From IMG/VR virus record IMGVR_UViG_3300021185_001174, positions 56,811 to 120,810 of that record: a DNA stretch of 64,000 nt; one strand, given 5' to 3'. Positions 1 to 59,000 of this stretch are shown in pieces. The stretch is from a virus. Under the pieces are notes generated by a model. The model did not search any database. It was given only the letters and a program-made list of their open reading frames with translations, and was not told the DNA's origin. A program made the position numbers and the translations under genes. The number at the start of each line of letters is the position of its first letter. Position 1 is the stretch's first letter.

Positions 1-499
1 TGTTTTTCTGTACTGATTTCCACATCTTCTCAACTTCTGGCTCTTTTAACTGTCTTGGTCTATTCTTATTTCTTTGTTGTGCAGTCTCTAAATCTGTATT
101 AACAAATATCATGTGTACTGCATAACCTATATCTCTTAACTGGTCCACACTTGCTTTAATTTTGGCATAGTCTTTACCAGTACCATCTATTACAACACCT
201 AACCTACCTTTTAAAGCAATCTCTAATTGTTTGCCTGTAAGTTTCTTTGCCTTATCTCTAAGAGCCTGGCCCTGGGCAGAATATATATCATCTGGCTCCA
301 TAGTAAGTCCTGCTTTAGTAAGTGCATTTTCATAGTTTGTATCAGAGTTTATAAGTTTAAACCCTAAAGATAATAAAGAAGTCTTACCAACTATAAATGA
401 TTTACCTGAACCAGGCCCACCGGCAAGGAATACTGCCTTAAATATAGATGGGTCATTTACACCTTCATCAATTTTAAAATGTTCTTTAAACCTTATCAT
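1..499 (-). CDS. P-loop kinase (Pnk/zeta-toxin-like); C-terminus runs off the window start
   Basis: Not in the ORF track; translated by hand. MIRFKEHFKIDEGVNDPSIFKAVFLAGGPGSGKS (Walker A), VVIDGTG, RNKNRPR. The ATG at 497-499 overlaps the TGA of the upstream gene. Confidence 0.85.
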   Translation of the reverse strand, partial: MIRFKEHFKIDEGVNDPSIFKAVFLAGGPGSGKSFIVGKTSLLSLGFKLINSDTNYENALTKAGLTMEPDDIYSAQGQALRDKAKKLTGKQLEIALKGRLGVVIDGTGKDYAKIKASVDQLRDIGYAVHMIFVNTDLETAQQRNKNRPRQLKEPEVEKMWKSVQKN

Positions 500-849
500 T
501 TCTTTAAATCGTACCTAAATGATTTATTTTTATCCTGGCCACTCTTAGTAATACCATACCCAGCAATCTTAGCTAGTTGTTGAAGTACTGGCCAATTCTT
601 TTCGGATTTCTTACTTCTATTATTCTTCAGCATGTCATTTTCTATTTTATTAAATAAAGTTTTAATCATATCCAAGTCATGCATGACCAATGGTGCTTCT
701 TCTAAGTCTTCACTTCGAGCTCTTCTGAAGTCTTGTTTAGTAGGCGCACCTTTTGAACCTGCCTTCCTCATTGGTCGGCCTTCTTTTCTTTTATTATGGA
801 TATTGGCCCAGAGACCATTTCCTTCCATGAAATCCTTAAAGTCGCTCAT
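496..849 (-). CDS. Small basic protein, putative internal head protein
   Basis: 117 aa ORF. N-terminus MSDFKDFME-G resembles the T4 capsid-targeting sequence; translationally coupled to neighbours. Confidence 0.7.
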   Translation of the reverse strand: MSDFKDFMEGNGLWANIHNKRKEGRPMRKAGSKGAPTKQDFRRARSEDLEEAPLVMHDLDMIKTLFNKIENDMLKNNRSKKSEKNWPVLQQLAKIAGYGITKSGQDKNKSFRYDLKK

Positions 850-2189
850 TTCTTTAATAGTCCCTTTGCTTTAATTCTATCATGGTATGTAAACTGATAG
901 TTCTTGCCATTCTTAGTATCTTTAACAATGTAAGTTGTTGGTGTCATCTTAGTAACTTTACCCATATACTTGGCACCATCAGCACGATAGTAATCTACTT
1001 CTGTACCAACTTTAATTGACTTCTTAGTTTCTGCGCCCATTCCGTGTTTTGCAAGAACTCTATAATTTTCTAGGAAGTTACTTACTATTTCTTTTCCCTT
1101 TGCTCTTGTTAGATAATGAGTATCTTCTTTCATATTTTCCTTTTCCCTTTCGTGTTTCTTTTTAAGAGTTTCTACTTCTTTGGCTTGTTTTAATGCAAGT
1201 TGTGCTTTCTCTTCTGGTCCAGGAGCTTCTTCCATGAATGACTTAATGTGCTTGATATCAATTTTCATCTTCTTAGATATCCATTGAGCTGACTTACCAG
1301 AATCAATATAACCTTGAAGTTCTTTTACTTTACCTTCTTCAACATTTTCAACATACCCTTTATCACCAGGCTTTTTATTATGATTAAAAACTTTCTTACC
1401 AAGTGGTGTAAGGTTACCCTTTTTATCATACATTTGGTTTACAAGTTTCTTTTCTGATGATGATAAACTTTGTTCTTTAATTCTGCCTTTGACTATATCT
1501 TCTAAGTCACGAGATAACCAATCAAAAAACTCATCGGGGTCATCACTTTTAATTTCATTGTTGTTCAATGCCCATTGAGTTAGGTCATCTTCCGCTTTCT
1601 TACCAGCAGAAGACATGAATGATAAATCACCAGTTTTGTATGCTTTTGTAAGTTCTCTTTTATGTTTTCTGAAGAGGTCTTTCATCTTTGCTTCTGATAT
1701 AACTTCTTCTTTAATCATCTTATCAACAGTCATGCCGCTTTTAAATTTACCACCTGACATTGCTTTAGGATACATTTTAGCAATTAAGTCATTATAACCT
1801 ACGAGTATGTTTAATATGTCAGATTGGATTTCTTTTGTTGAAATGCCTTTAATTACTTTCTTAACTGCACCGAGGTTGCCTTGAGCAAGTGCACGAGATA
1901 CTGCCTGATAGTCTTTCTGGTCTTGACCTGTTTCTTTCTTGGCAAGTCTTGCTACATTCTTAGTGGCTAGAGTTAGGTCTTGATTATAATCTTCATTAAC
2001 TGATTCATTAGCCTGTTTTAATGCATCTGCAACAATAGGGTCATCCGCAAGACCTCTTTTCATCGCCTCAATCTTTTTATAGGCTCCGGTCATGTTACCA
2101 CCCATATCGATTGCAATTTTAACTGCCGCCGCTACCAGAGAAGCTGGATATTTACTTCTATACTTCTCTCTTAATTGTTTAAATTTCAT
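846..2189 (-). CDS. Modular Lys/Glu-rich protein, putative internal head polyprotein
   Basis: 447 aa ORF starting MKFKQLRE-K, with repeated hydrophobic-x-E junctions (SVNE, MIKE, VISE, RIKE, NVEE, FMEE, NMKE). Confidence 0.7.
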   Translation of the reverse strand: MKFKQLREKYRSKYPASLVAAAVKIAIDMGGNMTGAYKKIEAMKRGLADDPIVADALKQANESVNEDYNQDLTLATKNVARLAKKETGQDQKDYQAVSRALAQGNLGAVKKVIKGISTKEIQSDILNILVGYNDLIAKMYPKAMSGGKFKSGMTVDKMIKEEVISEAKMKDLFRKHKRELTKAYKTGDLSFMSSAGKKAEDDLTQWALNNNEIKSDDPDEFFDWLSRDLEDIVKGRIKEQSLSSSEKKLVNQMYDKKGNLTPLGKKVFNHNKKPGDKGYVENVEEGKVKELQGYIDSGKSAQWISKKMKIDIKHIKSFMEEAPGPEEKAQLALKQAKEVETLKKKHEREKENMKEDTHYLTRAKGKEIVSNFLENYRVLAKHGMGAETKKSIKVGTEVDYYRADGAKYMGKVTKMTPTTYIVKDTKNGKNYQFTYHDRIKAKGLLKK

Positions 2190-2203
2190 TTGTTAGTTTC
2201 CTC

Positions 2204-3466
2204 TTATTTTACTTTAGCGGCTAAGTCTTTATCTGCCTTACCCCATGTTCCTGATGATTTGGTTACAAAAGAATTGACTCTTGCTAACCCCCATTGTGTT
2301 GGATTAGTTCCTGGCCTATGGCCTGTTCTCCAAGCCGCAAATCCTCTATCAAATACTTTTCTTAATATGGCTAATGGCATACCTGACTTATCTGCTTTCT
2401 TTTTAAGAGCATCATCAGCCTTACCTTCATTAACTACATAATCTTCAAAACTTAAATGTTTGGCCATTTCTCCGTACATATCTTTATATTTCTTAGTATG
2501 TTTTGATGGCTTTGTTTTTGCTCTTGCATCTCCAGGAGCTGGTTTATATGCGGCTGGATTATTATCATCCTTTTCAGCACCCTTCTTAAAGTGGGCTTTT
2601 CTTTTGGCTGATGTTGACTTTGCAAGACCAGAGTAATAGTTAGTACCCTCAGCTTGTTCTACTTGTTCCAACCAGACTTTCTTATTACCCTTAGGGAAAG
2701 CTACTGTAAGATAATTCGCACCTTTAGTGATAATCTTACCCTTCTCTTGATTTTCTTTTAGTCTAACTGTATCACCAACATTAAACAAGTCACCTAAAAT
2801 AAACTGTTCTCTTGTTTCTGATACAGTCGGTAGTTCTATATGAGACCTAAAGCTTTTCTCTTCTTTAAGGCCCATCCCTTTTCTCACTGCATTAAATAAC
2901 TCAGCTGAACCAGTATAACCACTTGGAAGACCACTAGAAAATGTTTGTAAATCCCCTTCTGCGGCCGCTGCTCTCATTTTAGAGGCTGACATTCCTGTTA
3001 CACCTTCTGCATCTGGGTCTCTTTGCCCTGCAGAGAGTACTTTAATAGTTCCTTCAAATTGATAGAAGCCATGTCTTGCCTGAACACCATTATATTTGTT
3101 TAGTAAGATTTCAAATTCTTTTACTCTATCTGAACCTGCAACCATTGACATCTTAGTAAAACCTTGGTCATATAACTTAGTTGCGATTTCAATTATAGTA
3201 CGCACGTCGCCGTCTGCCATGATACTTCTGGCATGTCTAGGAAACATTTTTCTTAGGAACTTAATCTTGTCTTTAAATTTAAGAGGATTCTTTTTAGGGT
3301 CTTGGGATTGTGATGCGTATATTCTATATGCACCTCCACGTGATACCTTTTTAAGAGTTTCAAAAAGTTTTTCGTGGCCTGTAGTCGGCGGATTAAATCT
3401 ACCAAATACTACGGTTATTTCTTTTGATGCTTCGACTATATAGTCGCTAAAGTTTTTGACTTTCAT
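2204..3466 (-). CDS. HxGH-family nucleotidyltransferase (cytidylyl/NMN-adenylyltransferase-like) fused to additional small domains
   Basis: VVFGRFNPPTTGHEKL motif and SASKMR motif. Followed by a KOW/SH3-like segment and a C-terminal DRGFAAWRTGHRPG domain. Confidence 0.8.
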   Translation of the reverse strand: MKVKNFSDYIVEASKEITVVFGRFNPPTTGHEKLFETLKKVSRGGAYRIYASQSQDPKKNPLKFKDKIKFLRKMFPRHARSIMADGDVRTIIEIATKLYDQGFTKMSMVAGSDRVKEFEILLNKYNGVQARHGFYQFEGTIKVLSAGQRDPDAEGVTGMSASKMRAAAAEGDLQTFSSGLPSGYTGSAELFNAVRKGMGLKEEKSFRSHIELPTVSETREQFILGDLFNVGDTVRLKENQEKGKIITKGANYLTVAFPKGNKKVWLEQVEQAEGTNYYSGLAKSTSAKRKAHFKKGAEKDDNNPAAYKPAPGDARAKTKPSKHTKKYKDMYGEMAKHLSFEDYVVNEGKADDALKKKADKSGMPLAILRKVFDRGFAAWRTGHRPGTNPTQWGLARVNSFVTKSSGTWGKADKDLAAKVK

Positions 3467-3483
3467 TTATCCCTGGTTCCCAT

Positions 3484-4728
3484 TTAGTTAGGACTATCCC
3501 AACCTTTAATTATATCTTTACTGAAGTTGTTGTAGGAGAATTCTAACCTATCAACTAACTTAACAGCGCCACCTTCCATTCTATCTATAGCAACAAAACC
3601 TTCTTGGTTGGTTACCTTAAATCCGGATTTAGTCTTGACAAAGGTATTAATTTTATTAAGACTATTAAGTTTATTTATAAGAATTAATTTACTATTTACA
3701 ACAAAATTCTGTAAATCGAAGATTAATTTTAGGTTCTTTATATTACCTTTACTAAAGAATTTAAGTAATGCATCTCGTTTATCTACTTGAGTCTGTTTAC
3801 CTTTATCTGAACTTCTTTTATCAATCTCTTTTTGATACCTATTATTAATCCACATTACTAGTCCAGTGGCATGTTTCTTAGTATCTGTAATTCTTTGGCC
3901 TTCTCTCACCTTGGAATTATTATATACATTTAATAACATATTTAATTCCGAATTGGACTCTAACTCTTTTAATGTAGTAGATGCGATTTGTTTAAATACT
4001 TTACCAGCACCTGAAAGATTTTTATTTAGTTCTTCTGTTTCTGCTTTAGTAAGAGTTGCAGTACCAGAAAGGTCAGGTAATGTTGCATCTTGCATCCATA
4101 TATCTTTTGACTTCTTTAACTTAGGTACTATCTCTTTACCAAACTCTGCTCTCATTGTCTCAAACGTTGCTCCACTATACGTTGTATGCCAAACAATTCC
4201 AATCTTAGCTGCTCCAATCTCCTTAGCGAGAGCACTATCAGTAGGTACTGCGTAAGCGATAGTGTTAGGATGAAACACAATATGACTAACTCCATTAATC
4301 TTCTCCTTTTTAAGGTCTGACTTATCGAACATAAAGTCGCCCTGTATAACCCCTTTGATTCCTATATTCTGTAAAGTATCGAAAGCCATAATAAGTTTTT
4401 TACTTAAGTCGCCTGATGTATCTGCTTTAATATCTTCATGTGACTTATAGATTTTAGGATTCGCATTGAAGATACCTTTTTTAGCAACAAAGAATTCTCC
4501 TGTCTCTGGGTGTTCTCCAGCAAACACGGCGGGGGCTCCGTCCCATTTCACGGTAACATCCACTGGTGCTTTGGTGTTACCTGAAAGCATATCCCTTAGA
4601 CTTCTAAGCGCTAGGATTGCTTGGCGAGCCCCCTTGACCCCACCATCTATAATTAGGTCTTCAATGTGGGTCATATGAGTATTCTTTGTTGCTTCATGCA
4701 ATGGAGTATAGCTAGTTAATCGTTTCAT
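3484..4728 (-). CDS. Conserved T4-like phage protein with covalent nucleotidyltransferase (RNA-ligase-like) motifs
   Basis: 414 aa. TVKWDGAP (motif I), IQGDFMF (III), QEGFVAI (IV) and VKLVD (V) occur in canonical order. Confidence 0.6.
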   Translation of the reverse strand: MKRLTSYTPLHEATKNTHMTHIEDLIIDGGVKGARQAILALRSLRDMLSGNTKAPVDVTVKWDGAPAVFAGEHPETGEFFVAKKGIFNANPKIYKSHEDIKADTSGDLSKKLIMAFDTLQNIGIKGVIQGDFMFDKSDLKKEKINGVSHIVFHPNTIAYAVPTDSALAKEIGAAKIGIVWHTTYSGATFETMRAEFGKEIVPKLKKSKDIWMQDATLPDLSGTATLTKAETEELNKNLSGAGKVFKQIASTTLKELESNSELNMLLNVYNNSKVREGQRITDTKKHATGLVMWINNRYQKEIDKRSSDKGKQTQVDKRDALLKFFSKGNIKNLKLIFDLQNFVVNSKLILINKLNSLNKINTFVKTKSGFKVTNQEGFVAIDRMEGGAVKLVDRLEFSYNNFSKDIIKGWDSPN

Positions 4729-6185
4729 TTATATAACCTCTTAAAGTCTTCCGTCATCATTGCATTAAAATTAGGTGCACTTGAAAAGTTGCCTTTATAT
4801 CTTAATATAATATTACATACTGCAACTGGGCCAATGAATAAAGTAAACTTTAAATTGGCGGCTCCAGAGCCTGGGTCAAATGCTTGTTTTGCACCTGGAG
4901 TATATTTCATTAATGGTTTGCCTTGAGAAAATAAATCATCTAGTTTACTTGATACTGAATCAATGTCTTTATACTCTCCGCCTTCTACTACAACACCTTT
5001 CTTAGGGCCGTAATCTCCAACGCCTGTAACTAGTGCAAAATCGAAATTAACTTTTTGTAATTCTTTTAAGTCGGACTTAAATATTAATTGAACTAGAATA
5101 TTTGAGAATAAGTCTGACTTGGATAATATTGTTTCACCCATCATTTTAAATAATGTTCTTTTACCTTTTAATACTCTATTAATAAGGTCATTGGGAATTC
5201 TATTAACATACTTTTTCCAGTTCTTAGTATTTACTGGATTCTTGTTAAGGTCATCAAATAAGTCATCAGACATCATATCAGGATATCTTTTTCTTAGTCT
5301 CTGAGCCAGTTTAATTACATGCACATAAAATCTACCTGCATCTAATTCTACATCTTCTTTTAATTTTTTAAGTTTCGGTTCATTAAGTAGCTTTGTAAAT
5401 GATTTATTAATAAGGGTTGGGTCTTCTTCTGTAACCCTTTTCTTTTTCTTTAAAGATACTCCTAGAAATTTATTACCTTTCTTAATAATAAAGTCAGATG
5501 AATTAAAATCTTGCATTCCATATTTTGACATTTGGAATTGTTTTACATCTTTATCCCATGACTGACCAGTAAGATAAACCATATCAGCATTACCATATCC
5601 TGCGTCAATAATAACATTAGCGGCCGATACTGCCTTACATAAATTTGGATAATCTCCTTCAAGAGAATCCACTTGACTCTGTTTATAACCTTTAACTTTC
5701 TTTAATTGAGCTCTTACCAATTGAATCATTGCATCCATTTCATCAGAATTAGTAATTTTATGTTTTGATGGGAAGAGACATAATGCAGCAGTCATAAGCT
5801 CATGAGGGTCATCACCTAAAGAACTACGGCCACCCATTGGTCTAGCATTTACATAGATTGCTTTATCCATATCTTTATGTTTAAAGTAATAATCTTTTTC
5901 TGCTCTGGCACCTGATATCTTAATAAGTTCTAAATTTGGTTCTTTTTCAATAATTTCTCTAGCGAGTGTAGAGAATGTTCTTCTGTTCTTATCTGGCATT
6001 AATTGAGAAATACCAATCTTCTTTGAATTTGATTTACCAGACCTGAGGTCTAATTCAACTTCAGTATCTACAGATGAAATTGCATCATCTATGGCCTGTA
6101 CCAACTTTACTGCATTCAGATTATCGTCAGTAGTTGAAAGAGTATCGAGTTCCTCTGTCATAAAACTGTTTTTAAATCTTATCAT
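4725..6185 (-). CDS. Putative PD-(D/E)xK-fold nuclease
   Basis: 486 aa. HELMTA ... SSDFIIK ... GVSLKK pattern (E / D / SxK variant). Confidence 0.5.
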   Translation of the reverse strand: MIRFKNSFMTEELDTLSTTDDNLNAVKLVQAIDDAISSVDTEVELDLRSGKSNSKKIGISQLMPDKNRRTFSTLAREIIEKEPNLELIKISGARAEKDYYFKHKDMDKAIYVNARPMGGRSSLGDDPHELMTAALCLFPSKHKITNSDEMDAMIQLVRAQLKKVKGYKQSQVDSLEGDYPNLCKAVSAANVIIDAGYGNADMVYLTGQSWDKDVKQFQMSKYGMQDFNSSDFIIKKGNKFLGVSLKKKKRVTEEDPTLINKSFTKLLNEPKLKKLKEDVELDAGRFYVHVIKLAQRLRKRYPDMMSDDLFDDLNKNPVNTKNWKKYVNRIPNDLINRVLKGKRTLFKMMGETILSKSDLFSNILVQLIFKSDLKELQKVNFDFALVTGVGDYGPKKGVVVEGGEYKDIDSVSSKLDDLFSQGKPLMKYTPGAKQAFDPGSGAANLKFTLFIGPVAVCNIILRYKGNFSSAPNFNAMMTEDFKRLYK

Positions 6186-6213
6186 ATTATCTCCGTTATT
6201 AGTTTATAAAGTT

Positions 6214-6242
6214 AGTATACTACAGAACCATTGGTTTGTAAA
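6214..6242 (-). promoter_or_regulatory. Early sigma70-type promoter
   Basis: TTTACA-N17-TATACT on the minus strand, with GTAG before the -10 as in the other copies. Confidence 0.7.
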
Positions 6243-6255
6243 GTTTTATTATAAC

Positions 6256-6263
6256 TATTTATA
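6256..6263 (-). promoter_or_regulatory. T4-type late promoter (gp55)
   Basis: TATAAATA, intergenic, about 70 bp upstream of the 6185 start. Confidence 0.75.
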
Positions 6264-34920: not shown

Positions 34921-35484
34921 TTATAACATAAAGAGTTCTAGTTTCTCTTTAGCCTTCTCCTCTTTTGCGAATTTTTTAACTGCTTTATCTTTCTCTTTTA
35001 CTGTAGAAATACGTTGTCTTAGTGTATCAACATAGTTCATAGTTTCGGCTGCTCCTGCATCGTCCATACCCATAGATACAAAATCATCAATACCCATCTT
35101 TTCAATAAACTTGAATTTAATGTCTTGTTGTTTCTTCTCTTTGGTTATTCTACGGATAAATGCATAGTAACATATCTGAGTAAAGTAAGAGAATGCATTT
35201 GGATTACCAGTTCTTGTTGCTGTCTCTATTCTATAATTTCCTATAGCTCTTAGGCAGTTCTCTACAGCATCCATTACCATTTCTTCTCGGTAAGTATATC
35301 TTACAAAGTTTGGTCTATGAGATAGGCCCTCTGCAATCTTGATAAAACACTTAGCGATATAGTCTGGAACCGTTGGTGCATCGACGCCCTTTTCTTTATG
35401 CATATTACTGTCCTTAACATATTCTACTACAGCTAGTGAGAATTCCTTGTTATTGACATAATGTGGCTTTTGTTTAGGTTTCAT
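34921..35484 (-). CDS. gp55: Late transcription sigma factor
   Basis: HYVNNKEF, IAEGLSHRPNF, EEMVMDAVENC and FSYFTQICYYAF. Confidence 0.97.
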   Translation of the reverse strand: MKPKQKPHYVNNKEFSLAVVEYVKDSNMHKEKGVDAPTVPDYIAKCFIKIAEGLSHRPNFVRYTYREEMVMDAVENCLRAIGNYRIETATRTGNPNAFSYFTQICYYAFIRRITKEKKQQDIKFKFIEKMGIDDFVSMGMDDAGAAETMNYVDTLRQRISTVKEKDKAVKKFAKEEKAKEKLELFML

Positions 35485-39131: not shown

Positions 39132-40463
39132 TTAGTCAACCATGATGTCGTCTACTCTGAAGATTCTGAAGTATGGGTTAGCTCTGTCAGTACCTGTACC
39201 GTCAGCGCCTACGAATGGATTAGTAACCATACCGTATCTAGTTTTGAACCCGATACGTGGTTGGAAATCACTTTCGCCAATTGCCTTAACCATAGTTAAT
39301 GGTACGTAAGGACAGTAGAACATACCCGCATCATACGGATTTGAACCTCTATAACCTACTAAAGCAAAGTCTTCTGTTGCATATGGGTCTACATATACTT
39401 TTAGTCTTCCGTTAAGAACACCAGCAAAAGTATTACCTGTATCATCTACTTGTAATCCAGTAGATAAAGCAGGAGTATAGTCCATTACACCAGCTGCTGC
39501 TAGAGCAGAAGCAACGTCTGAAGAACAGATAACAAAGTTACCTTTGCCTCTTCTAGTTTGCTTAGCAATGATGTTTGCTTCTCTTTCGAGTTGCATGATA
39601 AGTCCTTTGAACTTCTCAACCATCCAACGTCCGTCTGAGTCTGTACCAACATCAAAAGCACCTTTCAATGCTACTGAAGTTTGTTGTGCACCTAACTTAG
39701 CTTTAGCCATAATAGTTCTAATCATCTCTCTGTTGATTTCCGCAAGGATTTCAGTAGAAAGAATATTAGCTAGTTCAGCTTCTGCATCTAGACCATGAAT
39801 TGCTTTAAGGTCTTGAGCTAGTTCCATTGTGTACTCAGCTTTAAGAGCTCTTGACTTAGCAGTTACTGTTGATTTCTCAATAGTGAAAGCCATTTCTCCG
39901 AACCCGTTACCTGTTAGAGCTTCTGCAGATGCAGTAGCAATACCACTACCAGATGTAATTACTGTATCAGCTAGGTTATCACCTAGGACACCATCAGCAC
40001 CTGAACCGTCAGTTTCGCCTTCAAGACCAGTTGGCCCTGCAGCATGTGTACCAGTACCAGAAAAGTCAGTATCAGCTTCGTTAAAGAAAGCCTCATCACC
40101 TGCCTGTGTACCATACTTAGCTTTCATAGCAAAGATAAGACCAGTTGGACCAGTCATTGGTTGAACACCAGCTACATCATAAGCGATAAGATTTGGCATA
40201 GCTCTTCTTACGAGAGAGATAAGTACCGGATCAAATCCTTTGATGTTACCAGCTGTAGCACCCATACCAGCACCGACTACGTTAGCCGCTTCTGAAATAT
40301 AGTTACCACCCATTTGAGCTGCTTCTTCTGCAAGAGCAACTTCTTGATTTTCTAACAATCGAGCTGTAACAGCTTTCTTGTATTTATCCTGAATAACTGG
40401 TGCACTTTCGTGTTCCAGGACAGGACCCCATTTTTCCATGAGTTGTGAGTCTGCATTAAACAT
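39132..40463 (-). CDS. gp23: Major capsid protein
   Basis: LISLVRRAMPNLIAYDVAGVQPMTGPTGLIFAM, ELAQDLKAIHGLDAE and FQPRIGFKTRYG. Confidence 0.99.
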   Translation of the reverse strand: MFNADSQLMEKWGPVLEHESAPVIQDKYKKAVTARLLENQEVALAEEAAQMGGNYISEAANVVGAGMGATAGNIKGFDPVLISLVRRAMPNLIAYDVAGVQPMTGPTGLIFAMKAKYGTQAGDEAFFNEADTDFSGTGTHAAGPTGLEGETDGSGADGVLGDNLADTVITSGSGIATASAEALTGNGFGEMAFTIEKSTVTAKSRALKAEYTMELAQDLKAIHGLDAEAELANILSTEILAEINREMIRTIMAKAKLGAQQTSVALKGAFDVGTDSDGRWMVEKFKGLIMQLEREANIIAKQTRRGKGNFVICSSDVASALAAAGVMDYTPALSTGLQVDDTGNTFAGVLNGRLKVYVDPYATEDFALVGYRGSNPYDAGMFYCPYVPLTMVKAIGESDFQPRIGFKTRYGMVTNPFVGADGTGTDRANPYFRIFRVDDIMVD

Positions 40464-40485: not shown

Positions 40486-41619
40486 TTATGAATAGTTTTT
40501 ACTAATAGCTTGTGTGTATCTAGCCATTGAATCTGAGATATCAGCAGTTTCTACTGAGTCATTTCCAATGAGACTTTTTACTTCGTCAGCCTTCTCATTA
40601 ACTTCCTTTGTGAAGTATGATTCTTTAACAGTTTTAACTTTCATTTCAAAAGTTTCTTTGTTATCAAAATCAATATCTTCAACTAAAGATGCTAACTTCT
40701 CAGCTTCAGTTTCAGCTAAACCTAAAGAATTTTCTCTGATTACATTTGCTCTTTCAAGTTCTTGAACGGACTCATGTAGTCTGATATTATCTTCTGTTGA
40801 TTTATTAAGGTTCCCTTCTAGTTCAGCTACTTGCTCTGATAAATCATCAACAAGGTCTACTTTACCTTCTGGAACATCAATGTAATGTTCTGTGAACACT
40901 TTTTGAAGTGAAGTCATGAACTCTTCAGCAATTTCAGTCCTAAGACCATTAACTACTGATACTTCATTTTCTTTCATCCAATTTTCAACAACGTATGAAA
41001 GGTAAGAATCTACCTTCTCTACTAGCTGAGATTGAACTTGAGAAACTTCTTCTTCAAGATTTTGCACGTATTCGGCTTCTAATCTATCAACTTCTTCAGT
41101 CAACTTAGATGTTAATACTGCTTCGAAAATAGCTCCGGCCTTTCCTCTGAATCCTTCAGAAAGGGTTGCTTCTTCTAACACTAGTGCATCTAGGTCTTCA
41201 TCAAAATCAATTGATTCGACTTTTGCTTTAACCTTAGGTTCATCTTTCGTTTTACCTTTGACTGCAGCAATTGCTTTGCCAACGGAGCCATCATCTTCGG
41301 CCTCGTCAACTTTTGCCATTTTAGCGTAAAGTTTTTGTGCATCTTCTTTACGTGCTTTCTTCAACATTTCTACTGCGGCTTGAATAACACCTGCTTTAGT
41401 TTTTGGAACAGAAAGTTCTGGAGCGGCTTCTTTAACCTCTTCTTCTTCTTCCTCTTCTTCTTCTTTTACATCTTCATCTTCCGATTCAGATTTAGCAGCT
41501 GCCTTCTCTTCAAGAGATTCCTCGTCTAAATTCTCATTTTCAACGAGCTCTTCTTCTTGAGTAAGCTCTTCACTAGCAATGTCTTCAACAAGCTCTTCTA
41601 CTTTATTGTCGATTGACAT
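40486..41619 (-). CDS. gp22: Prohead core scaffold protein
   Basis: Acidic coiled coil, YLSYVVENWM; synteny. Confidence 0.93.
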   Translation of the reverse strand: MSIDNKVEELVEDIASEELTQEEELVENENLDEESLEEKAAAKSESEDEDVKEEEEEEEEEVKEAAPELSVPKTKAGVIQAAVEMLKKARKEDAQKLYAKMAKVDEAEDDGSVGKAIAAVKGKTKDEPKVKAKVESIDFDEDLDALVLEEATLSEGFRGKAGAIFEAVLTSKLTEEVDRLEAEYVQNLEEEVSQVQSQLVEKVDSYLSYVVENWMKENEVSVVNGLRTEIAEEFMTSLQKVFTEHYIDVPEGKVDLVDDLSEQVAELEGNLNKSTEDNIRLHESVQELERANVIRENSLGLAETEAEKLASLVEDIDFDNKETFEMKVKTVKESYFTKEVNEKADEVKSLIGNDSVETADISDSMARYTQAISKNYS

Positions 41620-41628
41620 AACATTCTC

Positions 41629-42288
41629 CTATATTTTAGAGTTTAGTTTAGAGAGGAAATTCTTAAAAGCTCTGATTTCTACATCCGCAGAATTCATATT
41701 TTTAGCTTCTTTTATTTCAGTCTCAATTTCTTCAATTTCTTGTGCCACAAGGATACCATTATTCCAAACCCAATCTACGCCTTCCATGATGCCATCTACG
41801 AAAGCACCAGGAGCCGAAGGGTCTTGAACAATGTCAACGGTTGCAAGCATAAAATCCTTACCAACATGTTGAGTACCATTCTTCTGTACAAGAGTTCCCA
41901 TACCACGACTTGAAACACCAAGCCTAACACCACCTTCTAATAATCCTTCAACTATTTTTCCCATAGGGGTCTTAAGTATTGATGCTTTTCCCACAACGTC
42001 ATCTCCCTCCCAACGGAGTTCAGTGATTTTGTGTGAAACTTTATCAAGATTGATAGTCGGCCCATCTGGGTGATTTAATTCACCTACCGCTCTACCAGTC
42101 TTTACTTGTTCTGTTATATACTTATTGACAGCGGACTCTAATACCTTCTTGTCATAAGTTCTTTTATTTCTGTTCTGTCTATTGGCCTGCATGAAGACAC
42201 CTTCTATAACGTATCCTTTCGAACCGTCTTTACGTGCTTCTTGAATAACCTCTAGGTCTGTTTCTAAATATTCGGCTATAAGCTTCAT
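41629..42288 (-). CDS. gp21: Prohead protease
   Basis: GELNHP, LGVSSRGMG and DIVQDPSAP. Confidence 0.97.
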   Translation of the reverse strand: MKLIAEYLETDLEVIQEARKDGSKGYVIEGVFMQANRQNRNKRTYDKKVLESAVNKYITEQVKTGRAVGELNHPDGPTINLDKVSHKITELRWEGDDVVGKASILKTPMGKIVEGLLEGGVRLGVSSRGMGTLVQKNGTQHVGKDFMLATVDIVQDPSAPGAFVDGIMEGVDWVWNNGILVAQEIEEIETEIKEAKNMNSADVEIRAFKNFLSKLNSKI

Positions 42289-42521
42289 TTTAGCTCTTCT
42301 CCCATCAGCTTAATAAAATCATTAGCTGATTTTTCTGCATCCTTTGCATTTCTAAAGTTGTCATCTAGTTTTTCATTGTCTACATATACTGCAAACTTGT
42401 TACCTTTCTTAGAGATAACTATATCTAGTGATTTTTTCTTGCCACCTTTATAGACCTTTACCTGTTTTTCTCCAGCGCCTAACTTAGTAACTTTTTCTCT
42501 TAGTTCTACAAAAGAAAGCAT
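42285..42521 (-). CDS. gp68: Prohead core protein (gp68-like)
   Basis: 78 aa starting MLSFVELRE; synteny 20-67-68-21. Confidence 0.65.
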   Translation of the reverse strand: MLSFVELREKVTKLGAGEKQVKVYKGGKKKSLDIVISKKGNKFAVYVDNEKLDDNFRNAKDAEKSANDFIKLMGEELK

Positions 42522-46651: not shown

Positions 46652-48094
46652 CTAGTGGTCATTCTTATCATTAGGTGCCGTAACTTCACTCAACATGAAT
46701 TGTCTATTAGGATTAACTGCCACCTTAAACTTAGTAAGTAATATTCTATTTACTAACATTTCGGATGCAGTATCTTTAAGAGTTAGTCCTAATTCTACTT
46801 TATATTTTTTATTATTAAAGATTAGATTGTGTTCAATAATTGGTCTTACATCAAAGAGTTTTCTAGCTCTCCTTGCTTCGGAAACACCTATTACTTCACT
46901 TCTAAACTTCTTCCCATTCTTAACCCATTCTACAAAATCACCATCAGCTTCAAGTTTATCAACATGAAACATAGTTGCCGATGCAGAGTTACCTGTATCA
47001 AATTTTGCCCTGATTGGGTCTTTTTCTAAACCTTCTAATATGACTGTTTCAATAAATCCAGCCTCTTGTCTCATAATAGGTCTTCTATTTAAATCACTTG
47101 AGAAGAAATCTATAATTAAACCTACCATATCTTTATCTGTTTTCTTACCCAATGATGAACCACTATTAGGGTCATATGCATTAAAGTGTGACCTAATGCC
47201 AGGTGAACCATTTACTTCTAATAAGTAGTAATCATCTTTTACCTTACAATGGTCAACTCCACAATACCAAGCCCCTGTCGACCTAGCCGCGGCTACTACT
47301 AATTCTTTTTCTTCATTAGATAATGTATATGGTCTTGTCTTTGCACCTAAGTGGACGTTATTTCTAAACTCGCCGTTATCTTCTTCTCTTATTCTCTCTG
47401 CGGCACCTATAATATTACCACCCACAACAAGAGTTCTAATATCTGATTTAATATCTAAGAATTGTTGTAAGAGTAAGTCTGCATCATATTTCCATAAAGA
47501 TTGAGCTACGGATACTAGTGATGCCATATCATTTACCTTAGATACTCCAACACCTTGTGTTCCCGTTAAAGTTTTTATGATTACTGGAAACTTACCACCA
47601 ACTCTTTTATGAGCATCTTCTATAGACTTTATATTATTTAAAATAGAAGTTTTGGGGGTGGGTAAATTATTTCTTTCTAATAGTAATGTATTGGCCATCT
47701 TATTATCACAAGCCAACATTGACTCTAAATCATTTACTAAAAAGAAACCAATACTTTGTAATGAAGATACAATTGCTTGAGCAGATAAACTTTCTAGTGC
47801 TCCAGCCCTAACAAAGATAATAGTATTATGTGTTTCTAGTTCTATGGAATTATCTTTACCGTCAGCATTCTGAATAGTTACACTACCAATCTCTACATCA
47901 TTTTGAGATATCCATGCTTCATCAACATAGATTTGGTCGAATGCTATTTTCTTGGCATTACATATCTCTTCGGCAATCTCTGCAAAAGTTCCTTCTCCAG
48001 ATTCCTTCTTACCTAAAACGGCAACGTGTAGATTATCCTGCTTTATTGGCTCTTCAAATTCTTCTACTACAAAATAATCGTTAAAATTTTTCAT
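46652..48094 (-). CDS. rimK: RimK-family ATP-grasp ligase fused to a C-terminal retropepsin-like (RimB-type) domain
   Basis: DNKM, PVIIKTLTGTQGVGV, DIRTLVVGG, FRNNVHLG and LEVNGSPG, then AKFDTGN...RPII...MLVNR. Start moved to MKNFNDY at 48094 (TAATG overlap with gp17). Confidence 0.9.
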   Translation of the reverse strand: MKNFNDYFVVEEFEEPIKQDNLHVAVLGKKESGEGTFAEIAEEICNAKKIAFDQIYVDEAWISQNDVEIGSVTIQNADGKDNSIELETHNTIIFVRAGALESLSAQAIVSSLQSIGFFLVNDLESMLACDNKMANTLLLERNNLPTPKTSILNNIKSIEDAHKRVGGKFPVIIKTLTGTQGVGVSKVNDMASLVSVAQSLWKYDADLLLQQFLDIKSDIRTLVVGGNIIGAAERIREEDNGEFRNNVHLGAKTRPYTLSNEEKELVVAAARSTGAWYCGVDHCKVKDDYYLLEVNGSPGIRSHFNAYDPNSGSSLGKKTDKDMVGLIIDFFSSDLNRRPIMRQEAGFIETVILEGLEKDPIRAKFDTGNSASATMFHVDKLEADGDFVEWVKNGKKFRSEVIGVSEARRARKLFDVRPIIEHNLIFNNKKYKVELGLTLKDTASEMLVNRILLTKFKVAVNPNRQFMLSEVTAPNDKNDH

Positions 48095-49704
48095 TAGTAT
48101 TGTTGCCCCTTCCATTTTTGTTCAAACCATACGTTACCATCACCATCACCGACACCTGCTGGAGTATCTTCTCCATCGTCAATGAATCCAAACGGAACCA
48201 TATCGTCCTGTATTTCTGCTAATCTTTCTTTATATAGCATGTTCTTTATATCTATATCAGTTATACCATTAAACACATCGGTTGATGTGAACCATGCGAA
48301 CATAACCAAATTCATCATTAAGTCATCATGGTTAGGAGCTATTGCTTGATAACTACTACCCTTAGAAACAAATGTACTCATTTCTATAATTGTCTGTGCG
48401 TCATATATAATCAACTTCTTCTGTTCTATTAAATCTTTTACTGTAGAACACCCAATACGTTTTACTCTTCTGGTCATTGTAGCACCAATTGCATTTGCCT
48501 TTAAAGAGGATTCAACAAACATATGTTCGTATTCTAAGTCATAATATAATCCATTACATACAACCGCACCTTGGTCATTACTTTCTATAACAACATAAGC
48601 TTCATTATATAAATTTGCATACTTATATATCATATCAGGCATTAACATTGGAGATATATTATTATCTCTGAATATTGCAACCTGTTCAAATACTGGAGTA
48701 GATACATCTATAATTGTAAAGGTAGAATAATCTTGTCCTCTCCCTTTACAAACATCTACTGTCATGATATAATTATGAGTAGGTATTGGGTCCTTATAGA
48801 TAAATATATTCTCTTTATATTTAATAGGGTCTATGGCTACTTGAGATAATAAATGATTCGCATCTATTAAAGTATTACCACGACCATGAAACGTATTACC
48901 GAACTCTTGCTCAAACTGTAGAGCAGAAGTATTTGAAATAGTTTCATCTTTCCACTTCTGGTCTCTCCCTGGTACGTCCCACCAATCTACTCTAAAGGGT
49001 TTATACTCATTTGTTCCTTGAGATGCCCCTTCCCATATCTTGTGATATATATTACCAATACCATTAGCTGTAGAGGTAATAATAACCTTCGTATCTTTAC
49101 CAGAAGATACCACTGGATAAGTTGATGTATAGAACTGTGCATCATTCTCTACAAAAGCAAACTCATCTAAGAACAATAAGTTAATAGAAAGACCACGAAT
49201 GGATGAACCACTAGTTGCCGCTGCCATTATCTTAGAGTTATTACTAAACTCAATGGAGCCTTTATTCAAAGCCTTACAGCCAGGTTGTAAGAAAAAGGGT
49301 AAGTTCTCTAACATTAGAGTCACCCTTGCTAACATTTCCCTTGCTGTTGCACCCTTATTTGCAAGTACTGCAATAGTTTTCTCTGGATGAAAACACGCAT
49401 ACCATAGTAAATAAGCAACAGATGAAATAGATTTACCACTCTGTCTACATGCCAATACTATATTAAACCTATTCTTATTAAAATGGTTAAACATCTTTTC
49501 TTGGTAATCATATAAATCAAATGGAACAAGTCCCTCATCAAGGGATATAACTTTTAAGTATTTACGAGCAAAGTAAGCAGGTTCTGCCATACACTTGGCA
49601 TACTCTAATACTTCATCTTTAGTAAACTGAGTTTCTACACCATCACGTTTTACTGAAGGGTTACCTAGATAACCAAATTCGTTATTCTTTATTCTCTGCA
49701 TCAA
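48094..49704 (-). CDS. gp17: Terminase large subunit
   Basis: ACRQSGKS, LFLDEFAF, ITSTANG, FEQEF and HDDLMM. Confidence 0.98.
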   Translation of the reverse strand: MMQRIKNNEFGYLGNPSVKRDGVETQFTKDEVLEYAKCMAEPAYFARKYLKVISLDEGLVPFDLYDYQEKMFNHFNKNRFNIVLACRQSGKSISSVAYLLWYACFHPEKTIAVLANKGATAREMLARVTLMLENLPFFLQPGCKALNKGSIEFSNNSKIMAAATSGSSIRGLSINLLFLDEFAFVENDAQFYTSTYPVVSSGKDTKVIITSTANGIGNIYHKIWEGASQGTNEYKPFRVDWWDVPGRDQKWKDETISNTSALQFEQEFGNTFHGRGNTLIDANHLLSQVAIDPIKYKENIFIYKDPIPTHNYIMTVDVCKGRGQDYSTFTIIDVSTPVFEQVAIFRDNNISPMLMPDMIYKYANLYNEAYVVIESNDQGAVVCNGLYYDLEYEHMFVESSLKANAIGATMTRRVKRIGCSTVKDLIEQKKLIIYDAQTIIEMSTFVSKGSSYQAIAPNHDDLMMNLVMFAWFTSTDVFNGITDIDIKNMLYKERLAEIQDDMVPFGFIDDGEDTPAGVGDGDGNVWFEQKWKGQQY

Positions 49705-56000: not shown

Positions 56001-59000
56001 AGCAGATATATTTGCAGATGTAGTTGCACCTCTGCCCGTAACTGAACTTAATGTATCTGTTTCAGTGTAAGACGTTAAATACCCAGCACTCGCATGGTTA
56101 CCCCAACCATAAGCTGTGTTCCAGTTAGTAGAGTTACCGCCACTTGCATTAACTGTTCCTGATGCAGTAACTGACCCTGCCACTGATAGGCCTCCAGTAC
56201 CCCATGTATTTAATACATAACTGTTTGAACTATTATAAATTCTTAAATTTAATACCTTATTTGTAGAACCAGAAGCTGAACCGATATGCCAATAAACATT
56301 TGTACCATCGTGAGTATTTGAATATGCATGTCCTGGAAAATAAGTTGATGAACCAGTCAAATTAGCATTTTGAATAGCATTACTATTCATGTTTAGTGTG
56401 CCGGTCATTGTTCCACCAGCTTTTGGTAGAGCAGCATTAGCAGTAGTATATGCAGTATTCCAGTTAGTAGAGTTACCTCCAGTGGCCGTTACTGTTCCAT
56501 TAACTGATATACCAGCCGAACTTGTGTTTAGTTTATTAGAACCTTGATAAGCGAGATACACTGAATTAGAGTCATAATACATTTGTCTTCGCCAAGCACC
56601 TACATCAGCTCCATCGGCTATGCTACTTGCTGAAATATTAAACTCTCTCCAACCAGAACTTTGTGACCACTCGTCATGGAAAACATATCCAGTTTCAGTA
56701 GATACTTCATTCGTATTTGAATCGGATTTATGTCCAACTCTAATATTAAAGTTTCCTTCTCCATCATTCCATGTAATCCAATGTTTTCCTGATTCGAAAG
56801 AAAGAGAATCTGCATTATTTAATGCTAATGTACCGGTCATGGTTCCACCAGACTTAGGTAATACTGTACTAAAGAAAGTATTATTATCATCAACTGCAGC
56901 TGCTAACTCGTTTAGAGTGTTTAATGTTCCTGGAGCTCCATCAATTAAATTATCAATCTGTGTTCCTACATATGTTTCAGTTGCATATCCTGAGAGTGAT
57001 GGAATTGTTGTAGAGTTAAAAGCATTTGAACCAAGTTCTCTTGTTCCAATAATTCCGCTTCCATCTATCATTACGGCGGTTGCTTCCGAGCTTTGGCCTG
57101 ATAGATTTTGTAATGTTAAATTATTCGCAGTTATTCTTCCATTTACATCTAAAAGAGAATTTGGTGTGAATAATCCACTACCAATACCAACATTACCATT
57201 TGCTCTAATAAACATTTTAGTTGAAGGCGCCGCTTGACCTGATGTTGATGTTTTAAATTCTAATCTACCATTGTAGTTTCCATCATCTGTAGAAGTAATT
57301 TGTGTTGTATTCCATATATTAGTATTATTAGGATGGCCACTTCTAAATGTTAATTTTGCTGAACCTAAGTTATATTGTGATGCAATTGTAATACCTGTAT
57401 TTCCAGAATTAGGGTCGCCTACTTGTAATTGTGTAACAGCACTATCAGTACCTATAGCTACATTACCTTGATAGTCAACTCTCATTCTTTCTACTAAAGA
57501 AGTTCCTGCTGCTCCAGAAACAGTGTTAGCGTTGTTTGTGTATACAACAAATGCTCCACTTCCTTCCTTCACTTGGCTATCAGCATTACTATTTTGACCA
57601 ACCTCTGCTCCAATTCTTACTTGAGGAGTTTCGTTTGTATTGTCATCTTCAAAGCTAAAATCAATAAAAGACTTCTGCTGTGCAATATCTGCACCAGTAT
57701 CATGGTGAAGTGTTAATAACGTAGCATCTCCAGTGTTTACCACTGTACTTGTTATAGCACCACTAGAGATAGTTCCAATATTTACAAGATTTCGTGATGA
57801 ATCTATTACTGCAGTTGTATTTACATAATATCCACCATTTACATAAAGACCGCTAGAATATAATCTTGACCTCCATGTGCTTCCTAGTCTTGTCTCAAAT
57901 CTATCTGAATATCCTAATATTGAAGTTGTAGGAATTCCTCCAGTACCTGTAGCACTAAATGCGATTACTGAAACATTATTTGCTGGATTAAATAATCTTA
58001 TATTTTCGTTGTAGTTATTGTAATTTGTTCCATCATTAATCCAAACCGACCCATTTTGTATTGTTCCTGCAAAGGTAGCGTTACCTGAAGAGTTAATTTC
58101 AAGAACTGGCGTACCACCACTGGGTTGTACTCTAAATGTTGAACCTGATGCTGAAAGTTCTACATTACCACTTGAGTCTTGTAGTTTAATTCCTGCTATA
58201 CCATCTGTTGATTGAAATGTAGCGGCAATATTAGCTGTGCCACTATTGACACTCAAAACACCACTAGAGATAGTTCCTACGCTGGTAAAGTTAGCACTAT
58301 TAAATGTAATGTCTCCAGTAGATGAATTTATACTTAACTGACCTGTATCATCTGTTATACCATTCCTTACTCTTACTATTCCATCAAAATATGCACCTTG
58401 ACTAGAATTAACATATAGGTAATTGTCACTTACTAAAACAACACCATCATTTCTAACTCTAAATAGGTCTGAATTAGAACTATCTTTTACAGTTAATGCG
58501 TCTGCTGTATTATCAGATGTACTTCCAGTTGATGTAATAGCACCACTAGAGATAGTTCCTACGTTAGTAGCTGGGTTATTTTTAAAATCTACTGCACTTC
58601 CAGTTAACGCAAACTCTACGCCGCCACTTGCACCATGAGTATAAAAATTTAAAACATTTGCATTAGCAGCAATTAAAGGTTTATTAGAACCATATCCACC
58701 AGCCCATTGTATATCCGCACCATCATTTAGTTGTAATTTGCCTGAAGAGGTTATAGTGCCACTAGAGATAGTTCCTGCAAAGGTAGCGTTACCTGAATTG
58801 TCTATATTAAAAGTTTCAGTTGTACTTCCTGCACTATTATCAAAAAATTGAAACTGCAATTTGTCGCCACTAGTTCCTCTTATCAAATAAATATCATTTG
58901 AATCTGAAAAAGAGTTTGAGTCTGTAAAACCTAAAGTTGGTCTTGTTGAGTTTATGTATATACTTGCACTTCCTGAATTAGAGGTAGAAGTAATATTACT

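Follow-up and report, generated by a model that had tools for sequence, protein, structure and literature searches.

Packaging of proteins into the phage head under the direction of a capsid-targeting sequence (CTS), followed by processing by the gp21 protease, is textbook T4 biology. On the T4 reference genome (NC_000866), ipII and ipIII both start with the ten-residue reference leader, and gp24 carries an aliphatic-x-Glu cut at residue 10. Genetic studies of internal protein (IP) III assign targeting to residues 4 and 7 and processing to residues 8 and 10 (PMC9026906), and the CTS-bearing IPs and Alt of T4 are ejected together with the DNA (PMC3012670). Here we examine a 64,000-nucleotide stretch from an uncultured marine T4-like phage (the window, which is the right-hand 64 kb of the 120.8-kb IMG/VR record IMGVR_UViG_3300021185_001174), in which a minus-strand block of six genes, g1 through g6, encodes proteins that all start with a T4-type leader of 8-12 residues. 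The nearest named relatives of this phage belong to the Kyanoviridae, and are Phage C48C1 (55% amino acid identity on the DUF6267 protein, the product of g2), Methylophilales phage Melnitz and Pelagibacter phage HTVC008M. A megablast search of the operon region against the phage collection yielded no match.

The closest described counterparts of the cargo are the cytidylyltransferases and kinases found in cyanomyovirus virions (S-SM1 T4-GC190 and GC1453-1455; S-CREM2 ORF154-156), which are encoded in a homologous and syntenic cluster downstream of gp41. In S-SM1 this cluster follows gp41/mazG and corresponds to SSM1_188-192. Mass spectrometry (MS) of purified S-SM1 virions detected the T4-GC190 cytidylyltransferase with 25 counts, among 41 proteins, and also GC1453, GC1454 and GC1455 (Table S8 of Sullivan et al., 2010, PMC3037559). 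Similarly, the S-CREM2 virion proteome includes a cytidylyltransferase and two neighbours (ORF154-156), and its authors state that cyanophage virions often yield kinases and cytidyltransferases, which might pass into the host (PMC10665884). Both papers record that the proteins are present, with contamination left as a possibility, and neither mentions a targeting leader or a protease site (PMC3037559, PMC10665884). In the searchable literature, which excludes subscription papers on S-PM2 and Syn9, we found no cyanophage capsid-targeting leader or internal head protein, and DUF6267 is named in no searchable paper.

In the giant phages phiKZ, 201phi2-1 and SPN3US, the precursors of many head-internal proteins are likewise cut C-terminal to Glu by a gp21-related protease. 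The motif in those phages is S/A/G-x-E, often in long propeptides with multiple sites, whereas the candidate site described here is aliphatic-x-E and follows a short N-terminal tag.

The block occupies window positions 2-6185. Its genes, its promoter, the sigma factor expected to read it and the gene that continues it beyond the window start are as follows.

4725-6185, minus strand: g1, 486 aa; leader residues 1-11, predicted cut after Glu11
3484-4728, minus strand: g2, DUF6267, 414 aa; leader residues 1-12, predicted cut after Glu12
2204-3466, minus strand: g3, 420 aa; leader residues 1-12, predicted cut after Glu12
846-2189, minus strand: g4, 447 aa; short leader, residues 1-8, predicted cut after Glu8
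496-849, minus strand: g5, 117 aa; leader residues 1-9, predicted cut after Glu9
2-499 in the window (full gene at genome 56635-57309), minus strand: g6, 224 aa in full, running off the window start
Genome 56189-56638, minus strand: g7, 149 aa; the sole operon member without a leader
6256-6263, minus strand: late-promoter box TATAAATA, T4-type, intergenic, 70 nt 5' of the g1 ATG within a 90-nt gap
34921-35484, minus strand: gp55-type late sigma factor (phrog_234, E 2e-51), which would read TATAAATA promoters

An original prediction, made by a model from the letters and their open reading frames (ORFs), had quoted the N-termini of these six genes, a late promoter at 6256 and the leader of the T4 internal proteins. 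All six minus-strand ORFs are present with exactly those N-termini, the TATAAATA box is indeed intergenic at the distance from g1 given above, and the quoted T4 leader is the one that ipII and ipIII carry. The genes are tightly packed: g1/g2, g4/g5 and g5/g6 each overlap by 4 nt, the other two junctions have gaps of 17 and 14 nt, and no minus-strand intrinsic terminators were found between g1 and g6. The idea of a six-gene operon stands insofar as all six leaders are there, but the unit does not end at g6. It extends past the window start to g7 and then to g8 (129 aa, outside the window), each overlapping its upstream neighbour; g8 has a leader and g7 has none. A weak resemblance of g7 to transglutaminase-like cysteine peptidases lies below the cut-off.

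Across the genome, 28 copies of the TATAAATA octamer lie on the coding strand, against 6 on the opposite strand. Intergenic copies are found 5' of the genes for the portal, the gp67-like protein, the sheath, the tube and the baseplate, and of giant structural genes. Late transcription of the operon from TATAAATA with the gp55-type sigma factor is probable.

The leaders of g1 through g6 are built on one pattern: Met, a hydrophobic or aromatic residue near position 4, an aromatic residue, an aliphatic residue, any residue, and Glu. Glu is present at P1, immediately before the predicted cut, in 6/6 genes, and P3, two residues earlier, is Leu or Ile in four of them, Met in g1 and Phe in g5. The leader of g6 comprises residues 1-12, with a predicted cut after Glu12, and is followed by a conserved G-V-N-D-P. 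In the AlphaFold2 (AF2) model of g2 (pLDDT 93.5), residues 1-13 are disordered and lie outside the fold.

Taken alone, a loose hydrophobic-x-Glu motif proves little, because it is common both in N-termini and in internal windows. Specifically, [LIVMF]-x-E falls at residues 8-13 in 33 of the 149 N-termini of the genome (22%) and in 11% of internal windows. A position-specific scoring matrix (PSSM) of fixed spacing, aligned at the cut site, mostly reflected a single family and discriminated poorly, since leaders differ in length; family-level counts and a gapped hidden Markov model (HMM) took its place. For the counts, about 80 IMG/VR loci plus named phages were sampled, and the fraction of distinct homologue N-termini with the motif was determined for each family. 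This fraction is 0.55-1.0 across the six operon families, including 59% for the g4 family. It is 0-0.19 in nearly all flanking families, among them the helicase, UvsX and nrd-region genes; one flanking family of 69-aa proteins reaches 0.42.

Individual families reveal how these leaders are put together. From the DUF6267 family clustered at 50% identity, we took 150 diverged representatives, 106 of which have a start Met and the conserved mature start motif within 45 residues. A leader plus short linker precedes this motif in 76 of the 106, and about 20 are leaderless, with only 1-9 residues before the mature start. Across these representatives, the roughly 80 loci and the named phages, leaders differ in length and sequence, and the pattern stops immediately N-terminal to the conserved mature start. 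In the g1 family, a variable leader of 10-14 residues always closes with aliphatic-x-Glu, and a conserved Asp-Leu/Ile comes next (M-[KR]-x-F ... [LI]-x-E, then D-[LI]). Homologues of g5 likewise occur both with and without leaders, the copy in HTVC008M being an example of the latter. Synonymous codons vary freely at the key positions (GAA and GAG at P1; six Leu codons in addition to Ile and Val at P3; TTT, TTC, TTA and CTA at position 4), and therefore the constraint acts on the peptide and not on an RNA element. An RNA-level explanation of the conserved start region, such as a RegA-type site, is ruled out by this variation. The leaders are thus modular and selected at the amino acid level.

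The gapped HMM was trained only on foreign DUF6267 leaders and then used to score all 149 N-termini of the genome. The highest scores go to g6, g3 and g8, and the rest of the top ten consists of the operon genes g1, g2 and g4 and of four others, namely a RimK-like protein, an 81-aa protein, the prohead protease and a DUF6433 protein. The gene ranked first by this independent model, g6, is from another family. Five of the six operon genes that did not contribute to training fall within the top nine (P ~1e-6), just 0-28 of the 3563 internal control windows match the top N-termini in score, and no replication gene is found among the top ranks. A MEME search had been suggested with the original prediction to see whether the motif is confined to these late genes; by both the family-level counts and the HMM, it is not equally common in early or replication genes. 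Its central proposal, that enzyme-like proteins carry propeptides resembling the T4 CTS, draws strong support at the sequence level, and indirect support from the published virion MS of homologues in S-SM1 and S-CREM2.

The genome also encodes the machinery that such leaders would require, including a gp67-like core protein and the following genes.

39132-40463, minus strand: gp23 major capsid protein, predicted maturation cut after Glu58
40486-41619, minus strand: gp22 scaffolding core protein (phrog_237, E 5e-68), the expected docking partner of the leaders
41629-42288, minus strand: gp21-type prohead maturation protease (phrog_207, E 2e-77), which aligns well to T4 gp21
42285-42521, minus strand: small prohead-core protein in the gp68 position, 78 aa; its leader is of the same type (HMM rank 13/149)

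The predicted gp23 site, Y-I-S-E|A, aligns with F-L-T-E|A of T4 gp23, and this cut site and the operon leaders have a common [FY]-[LI]-x-E|A form. The gp68-position gene sits between the gp67-like gene and gp21; its product has no PHROG match, and its start reads as had been quoted for a gp68-like core protein with the same pattern. At the N-terminus of the prohead protease, an aliphatic-x-Glu|Thr site ([LI]-x-E|T) is aligned with the N-terminus of T4 gp21 (HMM rank 7/149), which is consistent with self-targeting and auto-processing of this protein.

The consensus of foreign DUF6267 leaders, M-[KLI]-[ST]-F-K-[QE]-[FY]-L-x-E followed by a small residue, agrees with T4 in that positions 4 and 7 are hydrophobic or aromatic, 8 is aliphatic and 10 is Glu. 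The system has in common with T4 IPI, IPII, IPIII and Alt a leader of about ten residues with hydrophobic or aromatic positions 4 and 7, aliphatic P3 and Glu at P1, and the genome likewise has a gp21 protease, a core of the gp22/gp67/gp68 type and late-promoter boxes of the TATAAATA form. There are also clear differences. Leader length is flexible here (8-14 residues), and Phe takes the place of Tyr at position 4. The cargo belongs to new families, without homology to IPI-III or Alt, and consists mostly of large enzymes (24-54 kDa) instead of small inhibitors or DNA binders. In addition, the genes form a single cluster, an operon that follows the replication genes.

Virion proteomes of relatives provide a natural comparison of proteins with and without the tag. 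A scan of the whole S-SM1 genome revealed only two clean leaders, those of GC190 and GC1455, and both proteins are detected in virions. The S-SM1 DUF6267 protein (GC71) is leaderless and is not among the rows of the virion table. The DUF6267 proteins of S-SM1 (L088:8296-9270) and Syn9 (L089:7772-8734) are about 90 residues shorter and start with M-C-D-S-T. The cytidylyltransferase encoded next to each of them has a canonical 10-residue leader, and the S-SM1 copy is the one detected in virions. Relative to S-SM1 and Syn9, the present clade has more leader-bearing genes, including that for DUF6267. The leader is not limited to marine phages, because the soil T4-like Stenotrophomonas phage DLP_6 (L109:4956-8847) encodes adjacent DUF6267 and cytidylyltransferase proteins that both have leader-type N-termini.

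We consider it likely, judging from these sequence comparisons, that the leaders are T4-type capsid-targeting propeptides and that the proteins bearing them are made late, docked on the prohead core, trimmed by the gp21-type protease and kept in the head. In the pathway we propose, host polymerase equipped with the phage gp55 sigma factor would read the operon late from TATAAATA. During prohead assembly, each product would dock via its leader onto the scaffolding core of gp22, gp67 and gp68, using the hydrophobic or aromatic residues that match positions 4 and 7 of T4 IPIII. Next, the gp21-type protease would cleave directly C-terminal to the Glu that stands two positions beyond an aliphatic residue. 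Cleavage would free basic mature proteins of 8-54 kDa, which would be retained in the head with the DNA. Finally, the mature cargo may be ejected with the DNA and act enzymatically in the newly infected cell.

Several observations weigh against this account. The loose motif also appears singly on a few proteins, UvsY and a glycosyltransferase among them, whose packaging is unlikely. Within the operon, g7 has no leader, that of g4 is shortened, and P3 is Met in g1 and Phe in g5 instead of Leu or Ile. Exclusively late expression is not proven, because a sigma-70-like site (10/12) shares the gap upstream of g1 with the TATAAATA box. The virion evidence comes from homologues in S-SM1 and S-CREM2 rather than from the phage's own clade, and the S-CREM2 authors allow that abundant late proteins may co-purify (PMC10665884). 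Moreover, GC1453 and GC1454 are detected in S-SM1 virions without a clear leader, and thus the leader is not the sole route into the particle.

What enzymes might be delivered by such leaders? The labels kinase, ligase-like, nucleotidyltransferase and nuclease-like that were initially given to the cargo largely hold when profile and structural matches are considered. The product of g2 matches Pfam PF19782 (DUF6267) with an E value of 6e-101, a family that comprises no fewer than 2607 clusters at 50% identity. Among 98 sequences of 35-62% identity, K61-x-D63-G64 (motif I), E376-G377 (motif IV) and K390 (motif V) of g2 are invariant. When its structure was searched with VIA, the top ten matches were all RNA ligases (Z 8.4-6.6, which are moderate values), with DNA ligases next. 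The best match is a nick-sealing ligase from Naegleria (Z 8.4; 187 aa, 3.9 A), and others are Trl1 (Z 7.9), REL1 (7.9), T4 Rnl2 (7.5) and T4 Rnl1 (7.0). A Foldseek search with g2 against the Protein Data Bank (PDB) found nothing significant. Because the structural matches are uniform in family identity and the motifs are invariant, the best reading of the g2 model is a ligase-type adenylyltransferase with an RNA-ligase-like covalent nucleotidyltransferase fold.

For g3, a PHROG cytidyltransferase match (E 4e-102) is accompanied by a C-terminal DUF5824 match (E 4e-18) and by a T-T-G-H motif near residue 28. The Pfam CTP_transf_like score of 18.1 bits is under the cut-off of 21, and a match to the NadR NMNAT (nicotinamide mononucleotide (NMN) adenylyltransferase) model (E 0.003) is far below its own. 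From these sequence features, g3 is probably a HIGH-motif nucleotidyltransferase of the cytidylyl or NMN-adenylyl type with a C-terminal DUF5824. The product of g6 carries a Walker A motif and matches AAA_33 (E 5e-13; 49.9 bits versus a cut-off of 27) and Zeta_toxin (42.4 versus 22.3), and by these profiles is a P-loop kinase of the AAA_33/zeta-toxin-like type. A weak resemblance of g6 to PSTK is seen in NCBIfam, which for the cargo proteins gave sub-threshold hints only.

The g1 protein appears to be composite. Its residues 17-117 match the Pol-beta nucleotidyltransferase (NTase) fold, with VIA Z scores of 9-10.1 to the cores of TUTase, GLD-2 and CutA over about 95 residues, and the NTase carboxylate set is incomplete, with invariant D46-x-R48 and D98 in place of DxD. 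Residues 126-486 are restriction-endonuclease-like by one VIA match, to HinP1I (Z 7.6; 201 aa, 4.5 A), and sequence-profile searches gave no support for this fold; D231, S244 and K246 are invariant in this part. A Foldseek search with g1 against the PDB gave a weak match only, and PDB sequence and profile searches with g1, g2 and g3 returned no credible match. The remaining two proteins are of other kinds. The product of g4 is a Lys-rich basic protein (predicted mature pI 9.5) with no recognisable family in Pfam and PHROG profile searches or the protein atlas. That of g5 is a small basic protein with a conserved mature start, G-L-W, and no recognisable family in Pfam and PHROG profile searches. 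Short stretches rich in Lys, Arg, Pro and Gly occur in g5 after the conserved G-L-W and in g3 before DUF5824. A PADLOC search had no matches.

The leader-bearing proteins are united by charge. The predicted mature pI is 9.2-10.2 for nine of nine, whereas the median for the genome is 5.55, and a pI above 9 is seen in just 5% of its proteins of at least 200 aa. Such values fit proteins that reside among packaged DNA or bind nucleic acid. The difference in pI between DUF6267 proteins with and without leaders (9.2 versus 8.8, P = 0.051) is marginal and is not used as evidence.

The presence of a ligase-fold K-x-D-G protein and a P-loop kinase in one operon recalls RNA repair sets such as T4 Pnk with Rnl1 or Rnl2, and fungal Trl1. 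The resemblance has its limits, in that g2 has no detectable sequence homology to these ligases and has a helical insertion of about 130 residues between motifs III and IV, and no phosphatase or CPD module was found here. Also, T4 Pnk and Rnl are early cytoplasmic proteins and are not packaged.

Whether the packaged enzymes would reach the next host is a separate question. Because of the T4 precedent (IPI* and Alt, the latter a packaged enzyme) and the enzyme signatures of the cargo, we tentatively propose that these proteins are ejected with the DNA and act early, for example in RNA or nucleotide repair against host defence, although we would give this somewhat less than an even chance. Alternatively, leader-targeted proteins might act inside the particle or serve as ballast, contributing to DNA condensation, charge neutralisation, end or nick processing, or scaffolding. 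Such a role would accord with the strongly basic nature of all the predicted mature proteins, which resembles that of the DNA-embedded T4 IPs, with the lack of an enzyme signature in g4, g5 and the 81-aa protein, and with a Pol-beta-like domain in g1 that is without a full DxD triad. We regard it as unlikely, because even very diverged homologues keep their catalytic signatures unchanged (K-x-D-G, E-G and K of DUF6267, Walker A of g6, the HIGH motif of g3), which argues for retained enzymatic activity, and because the T4 proteins with a CTS are known to leave the head with the DNA (PMC3012670).

A second possibility is that the leader has some other role, as a degron, a tag for assembly of a cytoplasmic complex or a translational feature, and that the virion detections reflect carry-over of abundant late proteins, a contamination concern raised by the S-CREM2 authors themselves (PMC10665884). 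This is very improbable. Selection on amino acids rather than RNA weighs against a non-capsid role, and the motif equals both the T4 CTS at genetically defined positions and the maturation site of the capsid protein itself. It is present also on the prohead protease and on the gp68-position core protein. Carry-over would further have to accommodate S-SM1, where both leader-bearing proteins are detected in virions and the leaderless DUF6267 protein is not listed. Finally, mere chance or composition, whereby AT-rich genes often start with M-K and carry frequent hydrophobic-x-Glu triplets, would accord with the loose-motif counts and the poor performance of the PSSM but is effectively refuted by family-level conservation, modular presence and absence, and the independent HMM (P ~1e-6).

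If the capsid-targeting account is extended to its furthest consequence, T4-like phages of abundant marine heterotrophs and cyanobacteria (Kyanoviridae and relatives), and of soil (such as DLP_6), would load a CTS-tagged toolkit of several enzymes, inject it, and thereby repair the damage of, or pre-empt, defences directed at RNA, tRNA or NAD before phage expression begins. The toolkit may comprise the RNA-ligase-fold DUF6267 protein, the PNK-like kinase, the NMNAT-like transferase and the NTase-nuclease fusion. This broader scenario is doubtful at present. If the cargo is indeed ejected, then some of the ocean's most abundant viruses would begin infection with pre-made nucleic-acid enzymes, which would bear on the conflict between phages and host defences in SAR11, OM43 and picocyanobacteria.

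CTS-directed packaging and gp21 processing in T4, and the association of the cytidylyltransferase with virions, are already known. What appears to be new is the recognition of a conserved, modular leader of the T4 type on a whole block of enzyme families in Kyanoviridae-type phages, its match to the cut site of the capsid protein, and the assignment of a ligase fold to DUF6267. A targeting leader with a protease site offers a concrete explanation for the enzymes in cyanophage virion proteomes, which until now might have been contamination, and the named cleavage sites are exact predictions that can be checked in existing virion MS data. The fold assignment offers the first clue to the function of a very large family that had been uncharacterised. 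Moreover, the leader could serve as a sequence tag to predict the virion-delivered proteins, or 'ejectome', of uncultured T4-like phages.

Besides the operon, further leader-bearing genes lie elsewhere in the genome. A fusion of a RimK-type ATP-grasp domain with a Zn_protease-like domain is encoded between terminase gp17 and sheath gp18 (window 46652-48115, minus strand). The start codon most likely used lies 7 codons into the longest ORF and gives a leader of the same type, and because the protein ranks 4/149 with the HMM it may be a further packaged enzyme. The 81-aa protein (genome 52938-53183, minus strand) has a predicted mature pI of 10.2, a clean leader that 73% of homologue N-termini retain and no enzyme signature in Pfam and PHROG profile searches. 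Its gene lies in the same virion-protein neighbourhood as the leader-bearing Melnitz_27 and HTVC008M_73. Lastly, a DUF6433 protein of 141 aa (phrog_461; genome 44665-45090, minus strand) has a leader-like N-terminus (HMM rank 8/149), and a copy of TATAAATA is located about 100 nt upstream of its gene.

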